Notes under the pieces: model-generated
Database searches by the model: none
What the model saw: only the letters and a program-made list of their open reading frames with translations
Told to the model about the DNA's origin: nothing
Made by a program: the position numbers and the translations under genes
Assembly: GCF_044647545.1 (NCBI RefSeq)
Contig: NZ_CP172818.1
Length of the DNA stretch: 64,000 nucleotides
Reading direction: 5' to 3' (one strand)
From: Escherichia coli
GTDB taxonomy: Bacteria > Pseudomonadota > Gammaproteobacteria > Enterobacterales > Enterobacteriaceae
Shown: in pieces, positions 11,443 through 60,685 of the stretch
Layout of the letters: the number at the start of each line of letters is the position of its first letter
Position numbering within the stretch: position 1 is the first letter of the stretch

Positions 11443-11997
11443 ATGTCTGATGTTTTACGCCCATACCGCGATCTTTTTCCACAAATCGGTCAGCGCGTAA
11501 TGATCGACGATAGTAGTGTAGTGATCGGTGACGTTCGTTTGGCTGATGATGTGGGGATCTGGCCACTCGTTGTGATTCGTGGTGATGTACATTATGTACA
11601 GATTGGAGCACGCACCAATATCCAGGATGGCAGTATGTTGCATGTCACCCATAAGTCCTCATACAACCCAGATGGCAACCCATTAACCATTGGCGAAGAT
11701 GTCACTGTTGGTCATAAGGTGATGCTCCACGGCTGTACCATTGGCAATCGAGTGTTGGTTGGGATGGCATCAATTTTACTTGATGGTGCAATAGTAGAAG
11801 ATGATGTGATGATTGGTGCGGGTAGCCTGGTCCCACAAAATAAACGGCTGAAGAGCGGATATCTGTATCTCGGTAGCCCCGTCAAACAGATCCGCCCGTT
11901 AAGTGATGAAGAGAAGGCTGGGTTACGCTATTCCGCAAATAACTACGTGAAATGGAAGGACGAATATCTGGATCAAGGTAACCAGACCCAACCTTGA
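11443..11997 (+). CDS. yrdA: hexapeptide-repeat (gamma carbonic anhydrase-like) protein YrdA
   Basis: 184 aa ORF from ATG 11443 with left-handed beta-helix hexapeptide repeats; the track ORF (11116) over-extends 5' into the rrnD promoter. Confidence 0.85.
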   Translation: MSDVLRPYRDLFPQIGQRVMIDDSSVVIGDVRLADDVGIWPLVVIRGDVHYVQIGARTNIQDGSMLHVTHKSSYNPDGNPLTIGEDVTVGHKVMLHGCTIGNRVLVGMASILLDGAIVEDDVMIGAGSLVPQNKRLKSGYLYLGSPVKQIRPLSDEEKAGLRYSANNYVKWKDEYLDQGNQTQP

Positions 11998-13049: not shown

Positions 13050-13622
13050 TTACCCCTGTCGAAACAGTTCACCCGTCAGGGCATCGCGGATTTCTGAAGG
13101 ATTTAAACGCCCTCCCGTTTCACCAGGCACAACCGGGAACGCTGCGCCAAATTGTGCGCGAACTTCGTCTACTGTTCGACAAGGCGGCAATCCACTCAAG
13201 TTGGCACTGGTAGAAACCAGCGGTTTACCATAAGCCTGGCACAAAGCAACCACCAACGGATGGTCGGTGACTCGTACAGCAAGCGAATCAAAGCGGCCCG
13301 TCAACCAGCGCGGTGTTGTCGCAGGCGCGGGAAAGACAAAGGTGACGGGACCTGGCCAGCGAGAAAAAATGGTTTCACGCTGCGCATCAGTCAGCATGCA
13401 GTCATCAATATAGGGTTTAAGCTGCTCGTAATTTGCCGCGATTAAAATCAGCCCCTTATCAACCGGACGCTGTTTTAACTCCAACAGTCTCATCACTGCT
13501 GTTTCGCTATCAGGATCGCACCCGACACCGAAAACGGCTTCCGTGGGATAGGCGATGACACGTTCTTCATTGAGGACATCTATCGCAGCTGCGATAGCGT
13601 CTCCTTGCAGGTTATTATTCAC
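13050..13622 (-). CDS. tsaC: L-threonylcarbamoyladenylate synthase (t6A37), YrdC/Sua5 family
   Basis: YrdC fold signature; probable GTG start at 13622 inside the longer track ORF. Confidence 0.85.
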
Positions 13623-13626
13623 GTTA

Positions 13627-14169
13627 TTATTCCGCCGAAACCGGCTTTCCACATTGTTTACTGGCACAAAAGTGTTTTACACCCTGCGCGGTTTTCTTTT
13701 CGATGAGTAGCGGATAATGACACTCAGGGCATTCTCCGGCTATAGGTTTGAAGTTAATGGCAAATTGACACTCCGGGTAGCGATCACAGGAATGAAATGT
13801 TTTGCCATAACGGGAGCGGCGCTGGACCAGATGGCCCGTCCGACATTGGGGACATGTAATTGCTGTTTCGTCCGGTTTATCGATAAGTTCGGTATGTTCG
13901 CATTCAGGATAGTTACTGCAACCAACAAACATACCAAAGCGCCCCTGGCGTAAGACCAGATTTGCGCCGCATGCAGGGCAAATCTGTCCCTCCAGAACTT
14001 TGACGATATGTCCATCCGCTGAAGATTTCAGAGGACGGACGTAGTCACACGCCGGATACTGTGAGCATCCAAGAAACGGACCGTGTTTCCCGGATCGAAT
14101 AACCAGTTCAGCCCCGCACTTTGGGCAGGACTCATTATTACGCACCGTGAACAGTGCTGATTTCGCCAT
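13627..14169 (-). CDS. yrdD: topoisomerase-type C4 zinc-ribbon DNA-binding protein YrdD
   Basis: 180 aa with repeated CxxC...CxxC zinc-ribbon units. Confidence 0.8.
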
Positions 14170-14197
14170 AACAACTTATGCTGAATTAAAGAAATGA

Positions 14198-14671
14198 TTA
14201 ATGCAGCATACCTTCATTCACTTCAAAGAGTAATTCTTCCATTTGCTGGTACGCATTTTCGCAGCCCGGAATATTGAACAACACCATCAGGATTACCCAT
14301 TTCAGGTCTTCCAGGTCGAACTCTGCGGTATCCAGCGCGAGCACTCGCTCTATCACCATTTCACGGGTTTCAAGGTTAAGCACCTGAATTTGCTCAAGGA
14401 AAAGCAGAAAACCACGACAGCTGGCATCCAGCCTTTCACACTCTTCAGGGGTATAAATACGCATGGAGAGTGGATCAGAGGCCAGTTGCATCGGTTCTGC
14501 CAGTCCTTCCTGATAATCCGCAAGCTTTTCCAGCCAAAGCAGGGCATTGTAGATATCTTCTCGATCAAATCCTGCGTCGGTAAGATCCTGTTCAAGTTTG
14601 TCTTGATCCACACGCAACTCAGCTTCTGTGTGAATATAGGTTTCAAACAAATACATTAGTACGTCGAACAT
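14198..14671 (-). CDS. smg: Smg protein (DUF494)
   Basis: 157 aa acidic protein, conserved partner downstream of dprA. Confidence 0.85.
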
Positions 14672-15767
14672 GGCATGCCCTCCTCAATCGGACATAGCCG
14701 CCGGGTACAGCTGCGATCCATCCTGCTAACTCCAGTTCGAGTAGTTGAGTTACTACCTCTGGCACAGGTTGGCCGGCACGTTCAGCGACGACGTCAACAG
14801 GTGTTACCTCATCTCCTACGTTAGCCAGGAGCTCAGGAAATGGCAATGCCACGTCTTCCTGATCTGGTGAATAAAATGAATTTTCAGGGGCGTCTGGCAA
14901 CCAGTGCAATCCAAATTGCAAGTTTTCCAGAATTTCTTCCGGTTCCGTCACAAGAATCGCACCTTGTTTTATTAACCAGTGAGGCCCTTCGCTTCCCGGA
15001 TTCCCTAATGGACCCGGCAAGGCAAAAACTTCACGCCCCTGCTCAAGCGCACAACGTGCTGTCACCAGCGAACCACTGCGCAAAGCCGCTTCCACCACCA
15101 GTACACCTTTACTTAGACCACTGATAATGCGATTTCTTCGTGGGAAATTGTAAGCAAGGGGAGGAACATCAAGGGGAAATTCCGAGACGAGAGCACCACC
15201 CTGTTCAAGTAGACTGGCAGCCAGTGGAGCATGGCGGCGGGGATGAATAGTATTAAGTCCATTCCCCAATACAGCAATGCTGACGCCATTTACCTGTAAG
15301 GCCGCTTTATGCGCCACACCATCGATTCCACGCGCCAGTCCACTCGTAATTGTCACTCCACGCGTCGCCAGAGTTTCGCAAAATAATCGTCCCCATCGCT
15401 CGCCATACCATGAATGCGCCCGACTCCCCACTACGGCAAGCTGAAATGAATGCAACGCGTGCAGTTCTCCTTCAACAAACAGTGTGCCGGGGTAATCTGT
15501 CGTCGCCAGAAGTTGAGGAGGATAAAATTCGCTGTCCGCAGAGATTAAATGATGGTTGGGTTGCTCCAACCAACAAAGTGAGCTTTCGATACTCTTTCGC
15601 GGAAATGAAAGAAAGCGTTGTGCCTGCCGCAATGTAAGCCCTGTTTGCTGCAATACAACCGCATCAATATGCGACTGTTTTGCCAGCCAGTGAGCTATAC
15701 GGACCATATCATCGCCGTACAAGCTGCTGACGCTCATTAAACGCAGCCAAATTTCTGTATCGACCAT
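14643..15767 (-). CDS. dprA: DNA processing protein DprA (Smf)
   Basis: 374 aa, Rossmann-like DprA domain; 3' end overlaps smg start by 29 nt. Confidence 0.85.
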
Positions 15768-15896
15768 CCTTATCTCCCTGCCATAAGCAGCCTTAGCAAT
15801 CTTTGCGATTGGTCAGTGATGCTGTCAATCAGAGGGGGATTTGTCTAGAATAGAAGAAATAATCTTTCTAACTCCTGAACACATCTCTGGAGATTT

Positions 15897-16406
15897 ATGT
15901 CAGTTTTGCAAGTGTTACATATTCCGGACGAGCGGCTTCGCAAAGTTGCTAAACCGGTAGAAGAAGTGAATGCAGAAATTCAGCGTATCGTCGATGATAT
16001 GTTCGAGACGATGTACGCAGAAGAAGGTATTGGCCTGGCGGCAACCCAGGTCGATATCCATCAACGTATCATTGTTATTGATGTTTCGGAAAACCGTGAC
16101 GAACGGCTGGTGTTAATCAATCCGGAGCTTTTAGAAAAAAGCGGCGAAACAGGCATTGAAGAAGGATGCCTGTCGATCCCTGAACAACGTGCTTTAGTGC
16201 CACGCGCAGAGAAAGTTAAAATTCGCGCCCTGGACCGCGACGGTAAACCATTTGAACTGGAAGCAGAGGGTCTGTTAGCCATCTGTATTCAGCATGAGAT
16301 GGATCACCTGGTCGGCAAACTGTTTATGGATTATCTGTCACCGCTGAAACAACAACGTATTCGTCAGAAAGTTGAAAAACTGGATCGTCTGAAAGCCCGG
16401 GCTTAA
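15897..16406 (+). CDS. def: peptide deformylase
   Basis: 169 aa with motifs [19 protein letters not shown]. Confidence 0.95.
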
Positions 16407-52755: not shown

Positions 52756-53056
52756 TTTTGCTACTCCACTGCGTCAATTTTCCTGACAGAGTACGCGTAC
52801 TAACCAAATCGCGCAACGGAAGGCGACCTGGGTCATGCTGAAGCGAGACACCAGGAGACACAAAGCGAAAGCTATGCTAAAACAGTCAGGATGCTACAGT
52901 AATACATTGATGTACTGCATGTATGCAAAGGACGTCACATTACCGTGCAGTACAGTTGATAGCCCCTTCCCAGGTAGCGGGAAGCATATTTCGGCAATCC
53001 AGAGACAGCGGCGTTATCTGGCTCTGGAGAAAGCTTATAACAGAGGATAACCGCGC
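52756..53056. promoter_or_regulatory. crp promoter region (divergent from yhfA)
   Basis: 300 bp divergent intergenic region upstream of crp; individual sites not mapped. Confidence 0.4.
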
Positions 53057-59503: not shown

Positions 59504-60685
59504 ATGACTAACAGCAATCGCATCAAGCTCACATGGATTAGCTTTCTTTCCTACGCACTGACCGGTGCGTTGGTTATTGTCACCGGGATGGTGATGGGAA
59601 ATATCGCCGATTATTTCAATCTGCCTGTTTCCAGTATGAGTAATACCTTCACCTTCCTCAACGCCGGCATTTTAATCTCTATCTTCCTCAACGCCTGGCT
59701 GATGGAAATCGTCCCGTTGAAAACGCAGTTACGTTTTGGCTTTCTCCTGATGGTGCTGGCGGTTGCCGGTTTGATGTTCAGCCACAGCCTGGCACTGTTC
59801 TCGGCGGCGATGTTCATTCTCGGGGTGGTCAGCGGCATCACCATGTCGATTGGTACATTCCTGGTAACACAAATGTATGAAGGACGTCAGCGCGGTTCAC
59901 GCCTGTTATTTACCGACTCCTTCTTCAGTATGGCCGGGATGATTTTCCCAATGATCGCCGCGTTTCTGCTGGCGCGCAGCATTGAGTGGTACTGGGTTTA
60001 TGCCTGCATCGGGCTGGTGTACGTCGCTATCTTTATTCTGACCTTCGGCTGTGAGTTCCCGGCGCTGGGTAAACATGCGCCAAAAACGGACGCTCCGGTA
60101 GCGAAAGAAAAATGGGGGATCGGCGTGCTGTTTCTCTCCATTGCGGCACTGTGCTACATCCTCGGTCAGTTAGGTTTTATCTCCTGGGTGCCTGAGTATG
60201 CCAAAGGCCTGGGCATGAGCCTGAACGACGCGGGCACGCTGGTGAGTAACTTCTGGATGTCATACATGGTCGGCATGTGGGCGTTCAGCTTTATTCTTCG
60301 CTTCTTTGATTTGCAACGCATTCTGACCGTACTGGCTGGTCTGGCTGCGATTCTGATGTACGTCTTTAACACCGGAACACCGGCACATATGGCGTGGTCA
60401 ATTCTCGCCCTGGGCTTCTTCTCCAGCGCGATCTATACCACCATCATCACTTTGGGTTCACAGCAGACAAAAGTACCGTCGCCAAAACTGGTTAACTTTG
60501 TCCTGACCTGCGGGACCATCGGTACTATGTTGACCTTTGTGGTTACCGGCCCGATTGTTGAACATAGCGGTCCGCAGGCGGCGCTGCTGACGGCAAACGG
60601 TCTGTACGCTGTCGTCTTTGTGATGTGCTTCCTGTTAGGTTTCGTCAGCCGTCACCGTCAGCATAACACCCTGACCTCTCATTAA
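59504..60685 (+). CDS. tsgA: MFS-family transporter TsgA
   Basis: 393 aa, 12-TM major facilitator pattern. Confidence 0.85.

Follow-up and report, generated by a model that had tools for sequence, protein, structure and literature searches.

The 29-nt dprA/smg overlap of Escherichia coli as a probable stop-loss extension conserved among Enterobacterales

The dprA and smg genes of Escherichia coli overlap by 29 nt, and we consider, with a probability of about 0.7, that this is a real, annotated and lineage-specific stop-loss overlap, in which the smg start is largely autonomous and the junction is frozen within a nucleotide-selected stretch of DNA that serves smg expression. The window analysed here is a stretch of 64,000 nt of the E. 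coli chromosome (contig NZ_CP172818.1 of assembly GCF_044647545.1), in which both genes lie on the minus strand (Table 1). DprA consists of an N-terminal SAM domain (PF25317 SAM_SMF, E-value 1e-21), a Rossmann-like DNA_processg_A core (PF02481, 5e-70) and a C-terminal winged helix (PF17782 DprA_WH, 2e-11), as delimited by Pfam, and it is matched by a solved DprA structure (PDB 3MAJ, E 6e-45). Smg matches PF04361 over its full length (residues 1-157 against profile positions 1-153 of 153, E 3e-59). The RefSeq PGAP coordinates of both genes are the same as the ORF calls, and the annotation of K-12 MG1655 is equal (smg 3431991-3432464, smf 3432436-3433560). The dprA/smg overlap is thus already known, since it is present in the reference annotation, and by itself it changes nothing, as it fits the standard stop-loss model.

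Table 1. Coordinates of the features discussed in the text (positions within the window).
Feature	Position	Strand	Basis or remark
dprA (smf) CDS, 374 aa	14643-15767	-	ORF, Pfam domains, RefSeq annotation
smg CDS, 157 aa (DUF494)	14198-14671	-	ORF, PF04361, RefSeq annotation
29-nt out-of-frame dprA/smg overlap	14643-14671	-	Direct reading of the sequence; length identical in 67/67 Enterobacterales loci
dprA stop TGA	14643-14645	-	Third base of smg Phe9 (TTT) + GA of Glu10; Phe9 TTT in 66/66 loci
smg start ATG	14669-14671	-	ATG in 80/80 orthologous loci; first start past the in-frame stop
TGA in smg frame, bounding the smg ORF	14684-14686	-	15 nt 5' of ATG; stop at -15 in most loci
Shine-Dalgarno GAGGAGG for smg, also dprA AGG AGG (Arg360-Arg361)	14679-14685	-	Sequence
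Alternative in-frame ATG (Met6), rejected as start	14654-14656	-	Start of some 152-aa database entries
Ultra-conserved block A (start of DprA winged-helix domain)	14759-14846	-	Alignment conservation
Variable patch between the blocks (DprA residues ~335-342)	14738-14758	-	Alignment
Ultra-conserved block B, last 66 nt before smg ATG	14672-14737	-	Major-allele frequency 0.95-0.97, including dprA third positions
Candidate internal promoter TTGCCA-N17-TAACGT	14818-14846	-	Hexamers near-invariant, spacer variable
Predicted local hairpin GGCUAUGUCC[GAUUGAGGA]GGGCAUGCC	14672-14699	-	Single-sequence fold and RNAalifold
Predicted long-range helix, 5' arm CGCUGAAC pairing with GUUCGACG	14780-14787 with 14662-14669	-	RNAalifold; unproven

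The original prediction of a 29-nt same-strand overlap is borne out by the sequence, as is the initiation of smg inside the last codons of dprA in a conserved pair, the two genes being syntenic across Gamma- and Betaproteobacteria. The overlap contains the last nine sense codons of dprA with its stop, and codons 1-9 of smg plus 2 nt of codon 10, the smg frame being +1 relative to that of dprA. The minus-strand sequence of the junction is ...CGA TTG AGG AGG GCA TGC CAT GTT CGA CGT ACT AAT GTA TTT GTT TGA in the dprA frame and ATG TTC GAC GTA CTA ATG TAT TTG TTT GAA in the smg frame. It is indeed the longest overlap of the window, but its description as an exception among overlaps of 1-4 nt overlooked two cases: the other 11 co-directional overlaps measure 1 nt (six cases), 4 nt (three cases), 7 nt (yheT/yheU) and 11 nt (fic/yhfG). 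As stops make up 3 of the 64 codons, the calculated probability that nine codons contain none is ~0.65, so that a run of this length is typical once a stop has been lost. The length of the overlap is not beyond chance by itself; its conservation is.

We compared 80 orthologous loci overall, in a sample drawn outside Morganellaceae and Budviciaceae, and counted overlap lengths in the 67 Enterobacterales loci whose dprA is intact. All 67 share the length of exactly 29 nt, which is fixed across at least five families. Plesiomonas has an overlap of 8 nt, as TTT at Phe2 makes GTT TGA, and a contig resembling Aeromonadales likewise carries a truncated 8-nt version. In nine loci from Aeromonas, Vibrio, Photobacterium, Alteromonadaceae and Agarivorans, dprA ends 1-8 nt before the smg ATG, and nine outgroup dprA loci end at GGYVR(L/R)RR(G/N)*. 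Aliagarivorans has the spacing of E. coli but TAA for TGC (AGG AGG AAC TAA C ATG versus AGG AGG GCA TGC C ATG). More distant lineages display gaps of 40-117 nt or 1-nt overlaps. Because the length is invariant in Enterobacterales while dprA stops shortly before the ATG in sister orders, the overlap appears to be a lineage-specific 3' extension. Outside Enterobacterales, dprA terminates right behind GGYVR(L/R)RR, its stop falling within the 1-8 nt that separate the ribosome-binding site of smg from its ATG. This stop was probably lost in the ancestor of the sampled Enterobacterales, whereupon the dprA frame would have read through the smg start to the first in-frame stop, formed by Phe9 TTT and the GA of Glu10, adding 11 residues to DprA. 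The present extension does end at the first in-frame stop within smg, and it has no homology to the DprA family; 3MAJ aligns to residue 359 of 374 at most, 3MAJ and DprA_WH ending at 357-359.

Elongation of the upstream gene at its 3' end after disruption of its stop is the commonest modelled route to unidirectional overlaps (Fonseca, Harris and Posada 2013; PMC3887535). Our data resemble this model in that outgroups stop just before the ATG and Enterobacterales run into smg, in that the residues added to DprA lack a counterpart in other DprA proteins, and in that the overlap is in the phase of the common -8 class, of which Plesiomonas presents the exact version. In contrast, a length fixed at 29 nt and three invariant synonymous sites in smg are unexpected for a neutral by-product. 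A second comparison can be made with the dprA-smg-topA cluster of Beta- and Gammaproteobacteria, for which RT-PCR showed co-transcription of the three genes in Neisseria meningitidis (PMC5817196). The order is the same, with dprA followed by smg and then by a topoisomerase-I-related gene, which is a full-length topA 3' of smg in two of our loci (L086 and L089) and in E. coli only the gene of the Zn-ribbon protein YrdD. Unlike in E. coli, 40-117 nt lie between dprA and smg in the distant lineages of our sample; both the overlap and the ultra-conserved dprA 3' end are specific to Enterobacterales.

The start of smg is sound. It is preceded at 7 nt by the Shine-Dalgarno (SD) core GGAGG, which coincides with tandem Arg codons of dprA that are AGG in 61 of 65 and 64 of 65 loci. 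A GGAGG-like motif likewise lies inside the last dprA codons of sister orders, although it is read in a different dprA frame in Aeromonas and takes a weaker purine-rich form in an Alteromonadaceae locus. In all likelihood smg starts at the ATG at 14671, served by an SD that doubles as the rare AGG-AGG codons, a worked example of how the SD of a downstream gene can force such codons onto the gene upstream. A start miscall, with smg truly beginning at Met6 or later, is very improbable. Some public entries do give a 152-aa Smg from Met6 (Erwinia, Mixta, JGI), and very long co-directional overlaps are reported to be often mispredicted (PMC2478687). However, Met6 has no SD upstream of it in the sequence, is kept in 59 of 66 relatives and replaced by Ile or Leu in the other 7, and would still leave a 14-nt overlap. 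It would also drop the FDVL that follows Met1, which is conserved family-wide and extends to (F/L)DVL(M/I/L)YLFE across DUF494 representatives; the Pfam match begins at profile position 1, and most homologues reach 4-5 residues further N-terminally. The start that we checked is thus conserved in every orthologous locus (ATG in 80 of 80), with a GGAGG-type SD at 7 nt in Enterobacterales and equivalent motifs in outgroups, and a search for a downstream start that is conserved, has a ribosome-binding site and would abolish the overlap found none, Met6 being the sole candidate. The junction can serve as a worked example of a long overlap validated as real rather than as a start-codon miscall. We found no published mapping of transcription or translation starts for smg in the accessible data of Cappable-seq, Romero et al., TRAINSPOTTER, Ribo-RET and Conway et al.

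It had also been claimed that the overlap implies translational coupling, which does not follow, since smg has a strong SD of its own, the dprA stop is distant, and smg is kept where dprA is dead. Coupling would mean that ribosomes translating dprA open a masking hairpin, or that, having terminated at TGA, they start again 26 nt upstream; the overlap would then be kept for co-regulation or stoichiometry. We consider this possible but rather unlikely. In its favour are the same-strand arrangement with the smg SD inside the upstream ORF, the exactly conserved length, the co-transcription in Neisseria (PMC5817196), the enrichment of coupled pairs among short overlaps (PMC10666635), and a predicted fold in which a hairpin extends up to the base before AUG and a long-range helix spans smg from the last base of AUG to the first base of codon 4. 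Unfolding of the local hairpin by ribosomes is, on this model, a possible route to coupling. Yet the SD is strong and optimally spaced, and it would be accessible because its core sits in the predicted loop. Moreover, the dprA stop is found 26 nt 3' of the smg AUG, and its last base is 28 nt from the first base of AUG. Termination-reinitiation has been documented for -4 and -1 overlaps and falls steeply with distance, coupling being lost at about 20 nt in a study that varied intergenic gaps and not long overlaps (PMC10666635); dprA/smg lies outside the range in which stop and start overlap or are separated by about -8 to +6. The coupled ATGA/TGATG pairs (Huber et al. 2019, 2023; PMC6728339, PMC10666635) are likewise co-directional neighbours in a conserved cluster with the downstream SD inside the upstream ORF, but their stop and start overlap, whereas here they are 26 nt apart, and smg has its own strong SD and is kept with the same initiation region where dprA is dead. 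This is the case in three endosymbionts that retain an intact smg; as their dprA is a pseudogene full of stops, translation of smg must there be independent of that of dprA. Sister orders and distant lineages, for their part, have gaps of 1-117 nt. The dprA gene of E. coli belongs to the weakly expressed Sxy/CRP-S competence regulon and the downstream tsaC is essential, which favours an expression independent of dprA. We infer that smg initiation is largely autonomous and does not depend on dprA translation. Overlap alone, as this example illustrates, is weak evidence for translational coupling.

The 11-residue tail of DprA is probably for the most part a by-product of the overlap, because its last five residues change exactly with the synonymous sites of smg. 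The four residues seen at position 369 (N, H, D and Y) correspond to the four third bases of smg Leu5, and position 371 is L, F, P or S, following the codon choice at smg Tyr7 and Leu8. A functional tail (for example with an extra basic HVRR beside RLRR), on which purifying selection would hold the overlap at 29 nt, is a still less likely explanation than coupling. It could account for three smg codons that are invariant in 66 of 66 loci: Phe2 TTC, which avoids TGA; Asp3 GAC, which keeps Arg367 CGT; and Phe9 TTT, which makes the stop. Among 89 other conserved degenerate smg codon columns only one is invariant (Fisher p = 9.5e-4), and outgroups without the overlap encode Phe2 by TTT and Phe9 by either TTT or TTC. 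In addition, TTC at Phe9 would lengthen DprA by only 4-32 residues, yet it was never observed. Against such a function, positions 368-372 vary radically (T/S/F/I; N/H/D/Y; V/L; L/F/P/S; V/I) in step with smg synonymous drift, the tail lies outside the part of DprA alignable to 3MAJ, and Plesiomonas and the Aeromonadales-like contig carry the truncated version. AT-rich symbionts with a pseudogene dprA retain TTC and GAC, so that these two codons are constrained for a reason other than DprA. The invariance of Phe9 TTT fixes the dprA stop and is left unexplained by a leader function alone. We give almost no credence to a last explanation, in which a programmed +1 frameshift at the AGG-AGG tandem would yield a DprA-Smg fusion and the conserved overlap would be a recoding signal. 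Frameshifting at tandem AGG-AGG codons is a known effect of limiting tRNA-Arg(CCU), the smg frame is +1 and open from 12 nt 5' of its ATG, just past a TGA overlapping TTG-AGG, and nucleotide conservation around the site is extreme. However, the first AGG is replaced by AAG in Rahnella, Hafnia and Edwardsiella, outgroups retain AGG AGG with a stop directly after it, and a slip from AGG to GGA gives no slippery P-site pairing. Database proteins that join DprA_WH to Smg (P0048, P0107) were rejected as evidence, as their junctions are scrambled in the manner typical of assembly indels and display no clean shift. A literature search on DprA-Smg interaction returned nothing relevant, the mentions of smf/smg concerning eukaryotic Sm proteins.

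A separate observation concerns the DNA around the junction and is worth more than the overlap itself: dprA evolves fast, yet its 3' end is more conserved than any DNA around it. The segment 14659-14846, that is the last ~175 nt of dprA and 13 nt of smg, surpasses the remainder of the ~6-kb locus in conservation, also at synonymous sites, and in a 6.2-kb alignment of 57 loci it supplies the 60-nt windows of highest conservation, although dprA is elsewhere the least conserved gene there. Conservation of third codon positions is 0.87-0.94 in the last 175 nt of dprA versus 0.39-0.5 further upstream, and 0.5-0.65 in smg. In block A, four-fold degenerate codons such as CCA, GTA, ACA, GTC and GGC do not vary among the 65 loci, and the conservation of block B runs on to 14659 inside smg. 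The three endosymbionts with a stop-filled dprA retain block B, the SD and ATG TTC GAC GTA; the identity of their block B to E. coli is 0.92, 0.88 and 0.74, and that of their intact smg CDS 0.74, 0.73 and 0.69. Two extremely reduced symbionts without dprA have lost the conserved block yet keep smg, so that the block is not indispensable. Being single-copy and chromosomal, it is not a repeat or a mobile element. Nor did we find an overlapping ORF behind the synonymous constraint, since neither the alternative frames nor the antisense strand hold an ORF that remains open and whose start is conserved; a 49-aa antisense ORF (14675-14824) varies in its start (ATG, TTG or CTG) and is broken in another strain of E. 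coli. A search of 14100-15900 against Rfam gave no family match.

The stretch 14659-14846 (~190 nt) is under selection at the nucleotide level, most likely for a regulatory role in smg expression, be it as a leader, as an initiation region or as an internal promoter for smg-yrdD-tsaC-aroE. More specifically, and at somewhat less than even odds, we suggest a dual-use element that encodes the winged helix and also acts as promoter, leader or initiation region, from which the housekeeping genes smg-(yrdD)-tsaC-aroE would be expressed without dependence on the dprA promoter, itself under competence control; it would be this element, rather than coupling or the tail, that freezes the 29-nt overlap. 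One hypothetical internal promoter is formed by TTGCCA and TAACGT, which persist with their 17-nt spacing in most outgroups as well as in the symbionts whose dprA is dead. The match to the consensus is weak, with 3 of 6 positions of the -10 hexamer, and a promoter scan did not report it, as it fell under the scan threshold; an RpoD SELEX paper gives only the smf-def intergenic promoter.

RNA structure is another candidate. The predicted local hairpin ends one base before AUG and has the SD core in its loop; it displays no covariation in the alignment, where its lower stem is broken in Gullanella. In the predicted long-range helix, GUUCGACG runs from the G of AUG through codons 2 and 3 of smg to the first base of codon 4; 100% of the cells are paired and the only changes are one-sided, between G-C and G-U. 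For the predicted leader structure as a whole, which was derived from the same sequences, 99.3% of the cells are paired and both-side changes occur in only 2 of 46 pairs. As the sequences barely vary, covariation provides almost no support for the predicted structure, and the fold energy is not significant (z = -1.19 for the sense strand, +0.66 for the antisense strand and +0.65 for the local junction). Should the conserved segment act as leader or promoter for smg and for tsaC, which is essential, this would account for the escape of these genes from the competence-specific control of dprA, and it would offer a handle on the function and regulation of Smg, which is kept even in endosymbiont genomes of 0.7 Mb.

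The original prediction described a long overlap between the 3' end of dprA (smf) and the start of smg, a DUF494 gene, and took it to imply translational coupling. The overlap itself is borne out by the sequence, by RefSeq PGAP and by the curated K-12 MG1655 record, both of which give the identical 29 nt; it is already annotated and not novel. On the minus strand, dprA ends ...CGA TTG AGG AGG GCA TGC CAT GTT CGA CGT ACT AAT GTA TTT GTT TGA and smg begins ATG TTC GAC GTA CTA ATG TAT TTG TTT GAA, the second base of the dprA codon CAT being the A of the smg ATG, with smg in the +1 frame. The 157-aa smg ORF is a full-length DUF494 protein and the 374-aa dprA ORF carries SAM_SMF, DNA_processg_A and DprA_WH (Pfam). 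Many E. coli chromosomes match the surrounding 1.8-kb region at 100% identity, and 5425 of 5426 complete genomes contain it; strain FDAARGOS_497 is annotated with the same coordinates as the window.

Features around the dprA/smg overlap, with the minus-strand genes in their order along the window
Feature	Position	Strand	Remark
yrdB		-	
aroE		-	
tsaC		-	
yrdD	13627-14169	-	
smg	14198-14671	-	
dprA	14643-15767	-	
dprA/smg overlap	14643-14671	-	29 nt
def, fmt		+	divergent from dprA
Block A	14759-14846	-	conserved, 65 loci; start of DprA winged-helix
Variable patch	14738-14758	-	between the blocks, from conservation
Block B	14672-14737	-	conserved, 65 loci; extends to 14659 within smg
TTGCCA-N17-TAACGT	14818-14846	-	candidate internal promoter; hexamers near-invariant, spacer variable in free-living species

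This overlap is indeed the longest co-directional one in the window, but the accompanying statement that the others span 1-4 nt missed two of them: the remaining overlaps measure 1, 1, 1, 1, 1, 1, 4, 4, 4, 7 and 11 nt. The 7-nt case is yheT/yheU (52765-52771) and the 11-nt case fic/yhfG (59999-60009), both with coordinates derived from locus L090. Overlaps in E. coli generally fall into the -4, -1 and -8 classes, longer ones being rare (PMC10666635). The plus-strand yrdA and minus-strand yrdB overlap convergently at their 3' ends by 25 nt (11973-11997). An apparent 41-nt tsaC/yrdD overlap, from an ORF call at GTG 13667 (205 aa), is a mechanical artefact; RefSeq tsaC starts at 13622 (190 aa) and overlaps nothing.

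Because long overlaps often turn out to be start-codon miscalls, and very long co-directional ones are reported to be frequent mispredictions (PMC2478687), the smg start was the main point tested. An in-frame TGA 15 nt 5' of the ATG at 14671 precludes a longer smg ORF. A Shine-Dalgarno (SD) sequence, GAGGAGG, lies at 14685-14679 with a 7-nt spacer, and the homologous ATG is found in all 80 orthologous loci (one genome per species). Among the 1.8 billion cluster representatives searched, 841 were Smg homologues at an E of 1e-10 or better, and most of these aligned their own residues 5-6 with E. coli residues 1-2; from these N-termini (a 16-residue consensus), the FDVL following E. coli Met1 is therefore conserved family sequence. 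The sole alternative start, Met6 (14656), has no SD, is replaced by Ile or Leu in 7 of 66 enterobacterial sequences and would still leave a 14-nt overlap; a downstream start therefore does not remove the overlap, which stands. Many public 152-aa Smg entries begin at Met6 (e.g. P0071, P0093, P0094 and P0101; Erwinia amylovora, Mixta calida, JGI gene calls), and these look like start-codon miscalls that drop conserved residues.

Every one of the 67 Enterobacterales loci whose dprA is intact has an overlap of precisely 29 nt; these loci come from Escherichia, Citrobacter, Enterobacter, Klebsiella-like genera, Erwinia, Pantoea, Pectobacterium, Dickeya, Serratia, Rahnella, Yersinia, Hafnia and Edwardsiella (Morganellaceae, Budviciaceae and Pasteurellales were left out of the sampling). 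Plesiomonas (L080) has an 8-nt overlap, its Phe2 codon TTT giving GTT TGA in the dprA frame, and the same form with Phe2 TTT occurs independently in an Aeromonadales-like metagenomic contig (L083). A single synonymous smg base at Phe2 thus decides whether the overlap is 8 or 29 nt long. In nine outgroup loci from Aeromonas, Vibrio, Photobacterium, Alteromonadaceae, Aliagarivorans and Agarivorans, DprA ends in GGYVR(L/R)RR(G/N)*, and its stop lies 1-8 nt 5' of the smg ATG. In more distant lineages dprA and smg are 40-117 nt apart or overlap by 1 nt, and full-length topA usually comes next. Alignments to the Rhodopseudomonas DprA structure 3MAJ and to the Pfam winged-helix model reach only residues 357-359 of 374. 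Taken together, the outgroup stops and the ends of these alignments suggest that the overlap probably arose by a lineage-specific 3' elongation of dprA following stop loss, an order of events that we infer. Aliagarivorans AGG AGG AAC TAA C ATG and E. coli AGG AGG GCA TGC C ATG have equal spacing, and loss of such a TAA would reproduce the enterobacterial arrangement. The pair would then belong to the known class of unidirectional overlaps by 3' elongation, modelled as their commonest origin (PMC3887535).

The SD of smg predates the overlap, a GGAGG-like motif being present in the last dprA codons of outgroups too. It consists of the Arg codons AGG AGG in E. coli and most outgroups, including several without the overlap; in Aeromonas it lies in a different dprA frame and an Alteromonadaceae locus has a weaker version. 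AGG occupies the two dprA codons (14679-14684) in 61 and 64 of 65 loci. These tandem codons, among the rarest in E. coli, are fixed in dprA because they form the ribosome-binding site of smg.

Conservation extends well beyond the SD. In a profile of 65 loci anchored on the smg ATG, the last ~175 nt of dprA have a major-allele frequency of 0.90-0.97, and their third codon positions reach 0.87-0.94 versus 0.39-0.5 upstream and 0.5-0.65 in smg. Even four-fold degenerate codons (Pro CCA, Val GTA, Thr ACA, Val GTC, Gly GGC) are the same in 65 of 65 genomes. The two blocks contain the most conserved 60-nt windows (0.91, 0.87, 0.96) of a 6.2-kb alignment of 57 loci, in which no gene is less conserved than the remainder of dprA (0.46-0.76). 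Block conservation is restricted to Enterobacterales. The stretch is single-copy and not a repeat, it matches no Rfam family, and no alternative-frame or antisense ORF accounts for the constraint in 14659-14846, an interval that takes in 13 nt of smg. No published data on transcription starts or initiation sites were found for the dprA 3' end. Its regulatory roles are those we infer from conservation alone, and this dual-use, ultra-conserved end is the part that merits experimental follow-up.

Within the overlap, constraint could reflect selection on the DprA tail. An alignment of 66 smg genes contains 96 codon columns in which the amino acid is conserved and degenerate, of which only four are codon-invariant (Phe2 TTC, Asp3 GAC, Phe9 TTT and Glu145): three of seven eligible columns inside the overlap versus one of 89 outside (Fisher p = 9.5e-4, treating codon columns as independent). 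In the dprA frame, Phe2 TTC avoids TGA, Asp3 GAC keeps Arg367 and Phe9 TTT creates the stop; outgroups without the overlap have TTT at Phe2 and either TTT or TTC at Phe9. The remaining synonymous sites vary freely, and the DprA tail tracks them (N/H/D/Y at position 369, L/F/P/S at 371). At face value, the invariant sites suggest selection on DprA tail length and on the HVRR start. For Phe2 and Asp3 this suggestion is weakened because symbionts with a dead dprA keep both codons. Phe9 TTT remains compatible with mild selection against a longer tail, since TTC would add 4-32 residues to DprA.

These symbionts constitute a natural experiment. In three insect endosymbionts, the Pantoea symbiont of Nezara, Steffania and Gullanella, dprA is full of stops in every frame; block B nevertheless retains 0.92, 0.88 and 0.74 identity to E. 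coli, as against 0.74, 0.73 and 0.69 for the intact smg coding sequence and 0.57-0.61 for the decayed upstream dprA. The SD and ATG TTC GAC GTA are kept despite a locus G+C of 27-40%. Two far more reduced symbionts, L091 (AP014521.1, a 708-kb genome) and L092, have deleted dprA and yrdD and lost the conserved block. This pattern of retention and loss argues that block B and smg codons 2-3 are constrained for the sake of smg and not of DprA, that smg can be translated without dprA translation, and that the element is advantageous, not indispensable. As L091 and L092 (locus G+C 23-25%) retain smg-tsaC-aroE together without dprA and yrdD, Smg may have a housekeeping role tied to its downstream neighbours and not to competence.

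The coupling originally proposed finds only partial support. smg does initiate within dprA codons, but termination-reinitiation pairs are defined by a stop/start spacing that dprA/smg lacks, and smg is kept where dprA is dead. Termination-reinitiation is unlikely, the dprA stop being too far from the smg AUG. Translation of smg begins at 14671, using a strong SD that lies within dprA codons, and dprA ribosomes, when present, pass through this start and stop 26 nt downstream; initiation would be mainly autonomous. Coupling could possibly operate if these ribosomes unfolded a local hairpin that RNAalifold predicts to end right before the smg AUG, with the SD core in its loop. A long-range helix is also predicted between CGCUGAAC (14787-14780) and GUUCGACG, the latter comprising the G of AUG, smg codons 2-3 and the first base of codon 4. 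It takes in the invariant third bases of Phe2 and Asp3, and the synonymous sites that vary freely either lie in predicted bulges or show C/U facing G. Compensatory change affects only 2 of 46 predicted pairs, the prediction was made from the very sequences on which it was assessed, and its fold energy is not unusual; the RNA structure around the smg start is a plausible prediction.

TTGCCA-N17-TAACGT is a candidate internal promoter for smg-yrdD-tsaC-aroE, a weak sigma-70-like match under the promoter-scan threshold. In the three dead-dprA loci (L045, L067, L070), the 5' edge of block A still has TTGCCA or TTGCTA and, after a 17-nt spacer, TAAC(G/C/T)T.

YrdD is made up solely of topoisomerase-I zinc ribbons (three Zn_ribbon_Top1 matches), and full-length topA directly follows smg in distant lineages (L086, L089); E. 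coli yrdD thus resembles a remnant or a paralogue of the topA C-terminal part within a conserved dprA-smg-topA cluster. Finally, a segment of 50-137 nt with 98-100% identity to the sequence immediately 5' of chromosomal def (15764-15900) is found on ~260 mostly conjugative IncF-type plasmids, in some plasmids with a plasmid def copy and in others as an unannotated 50-nt relic directly 3' of tsh/hbp (plasmid locus L094).
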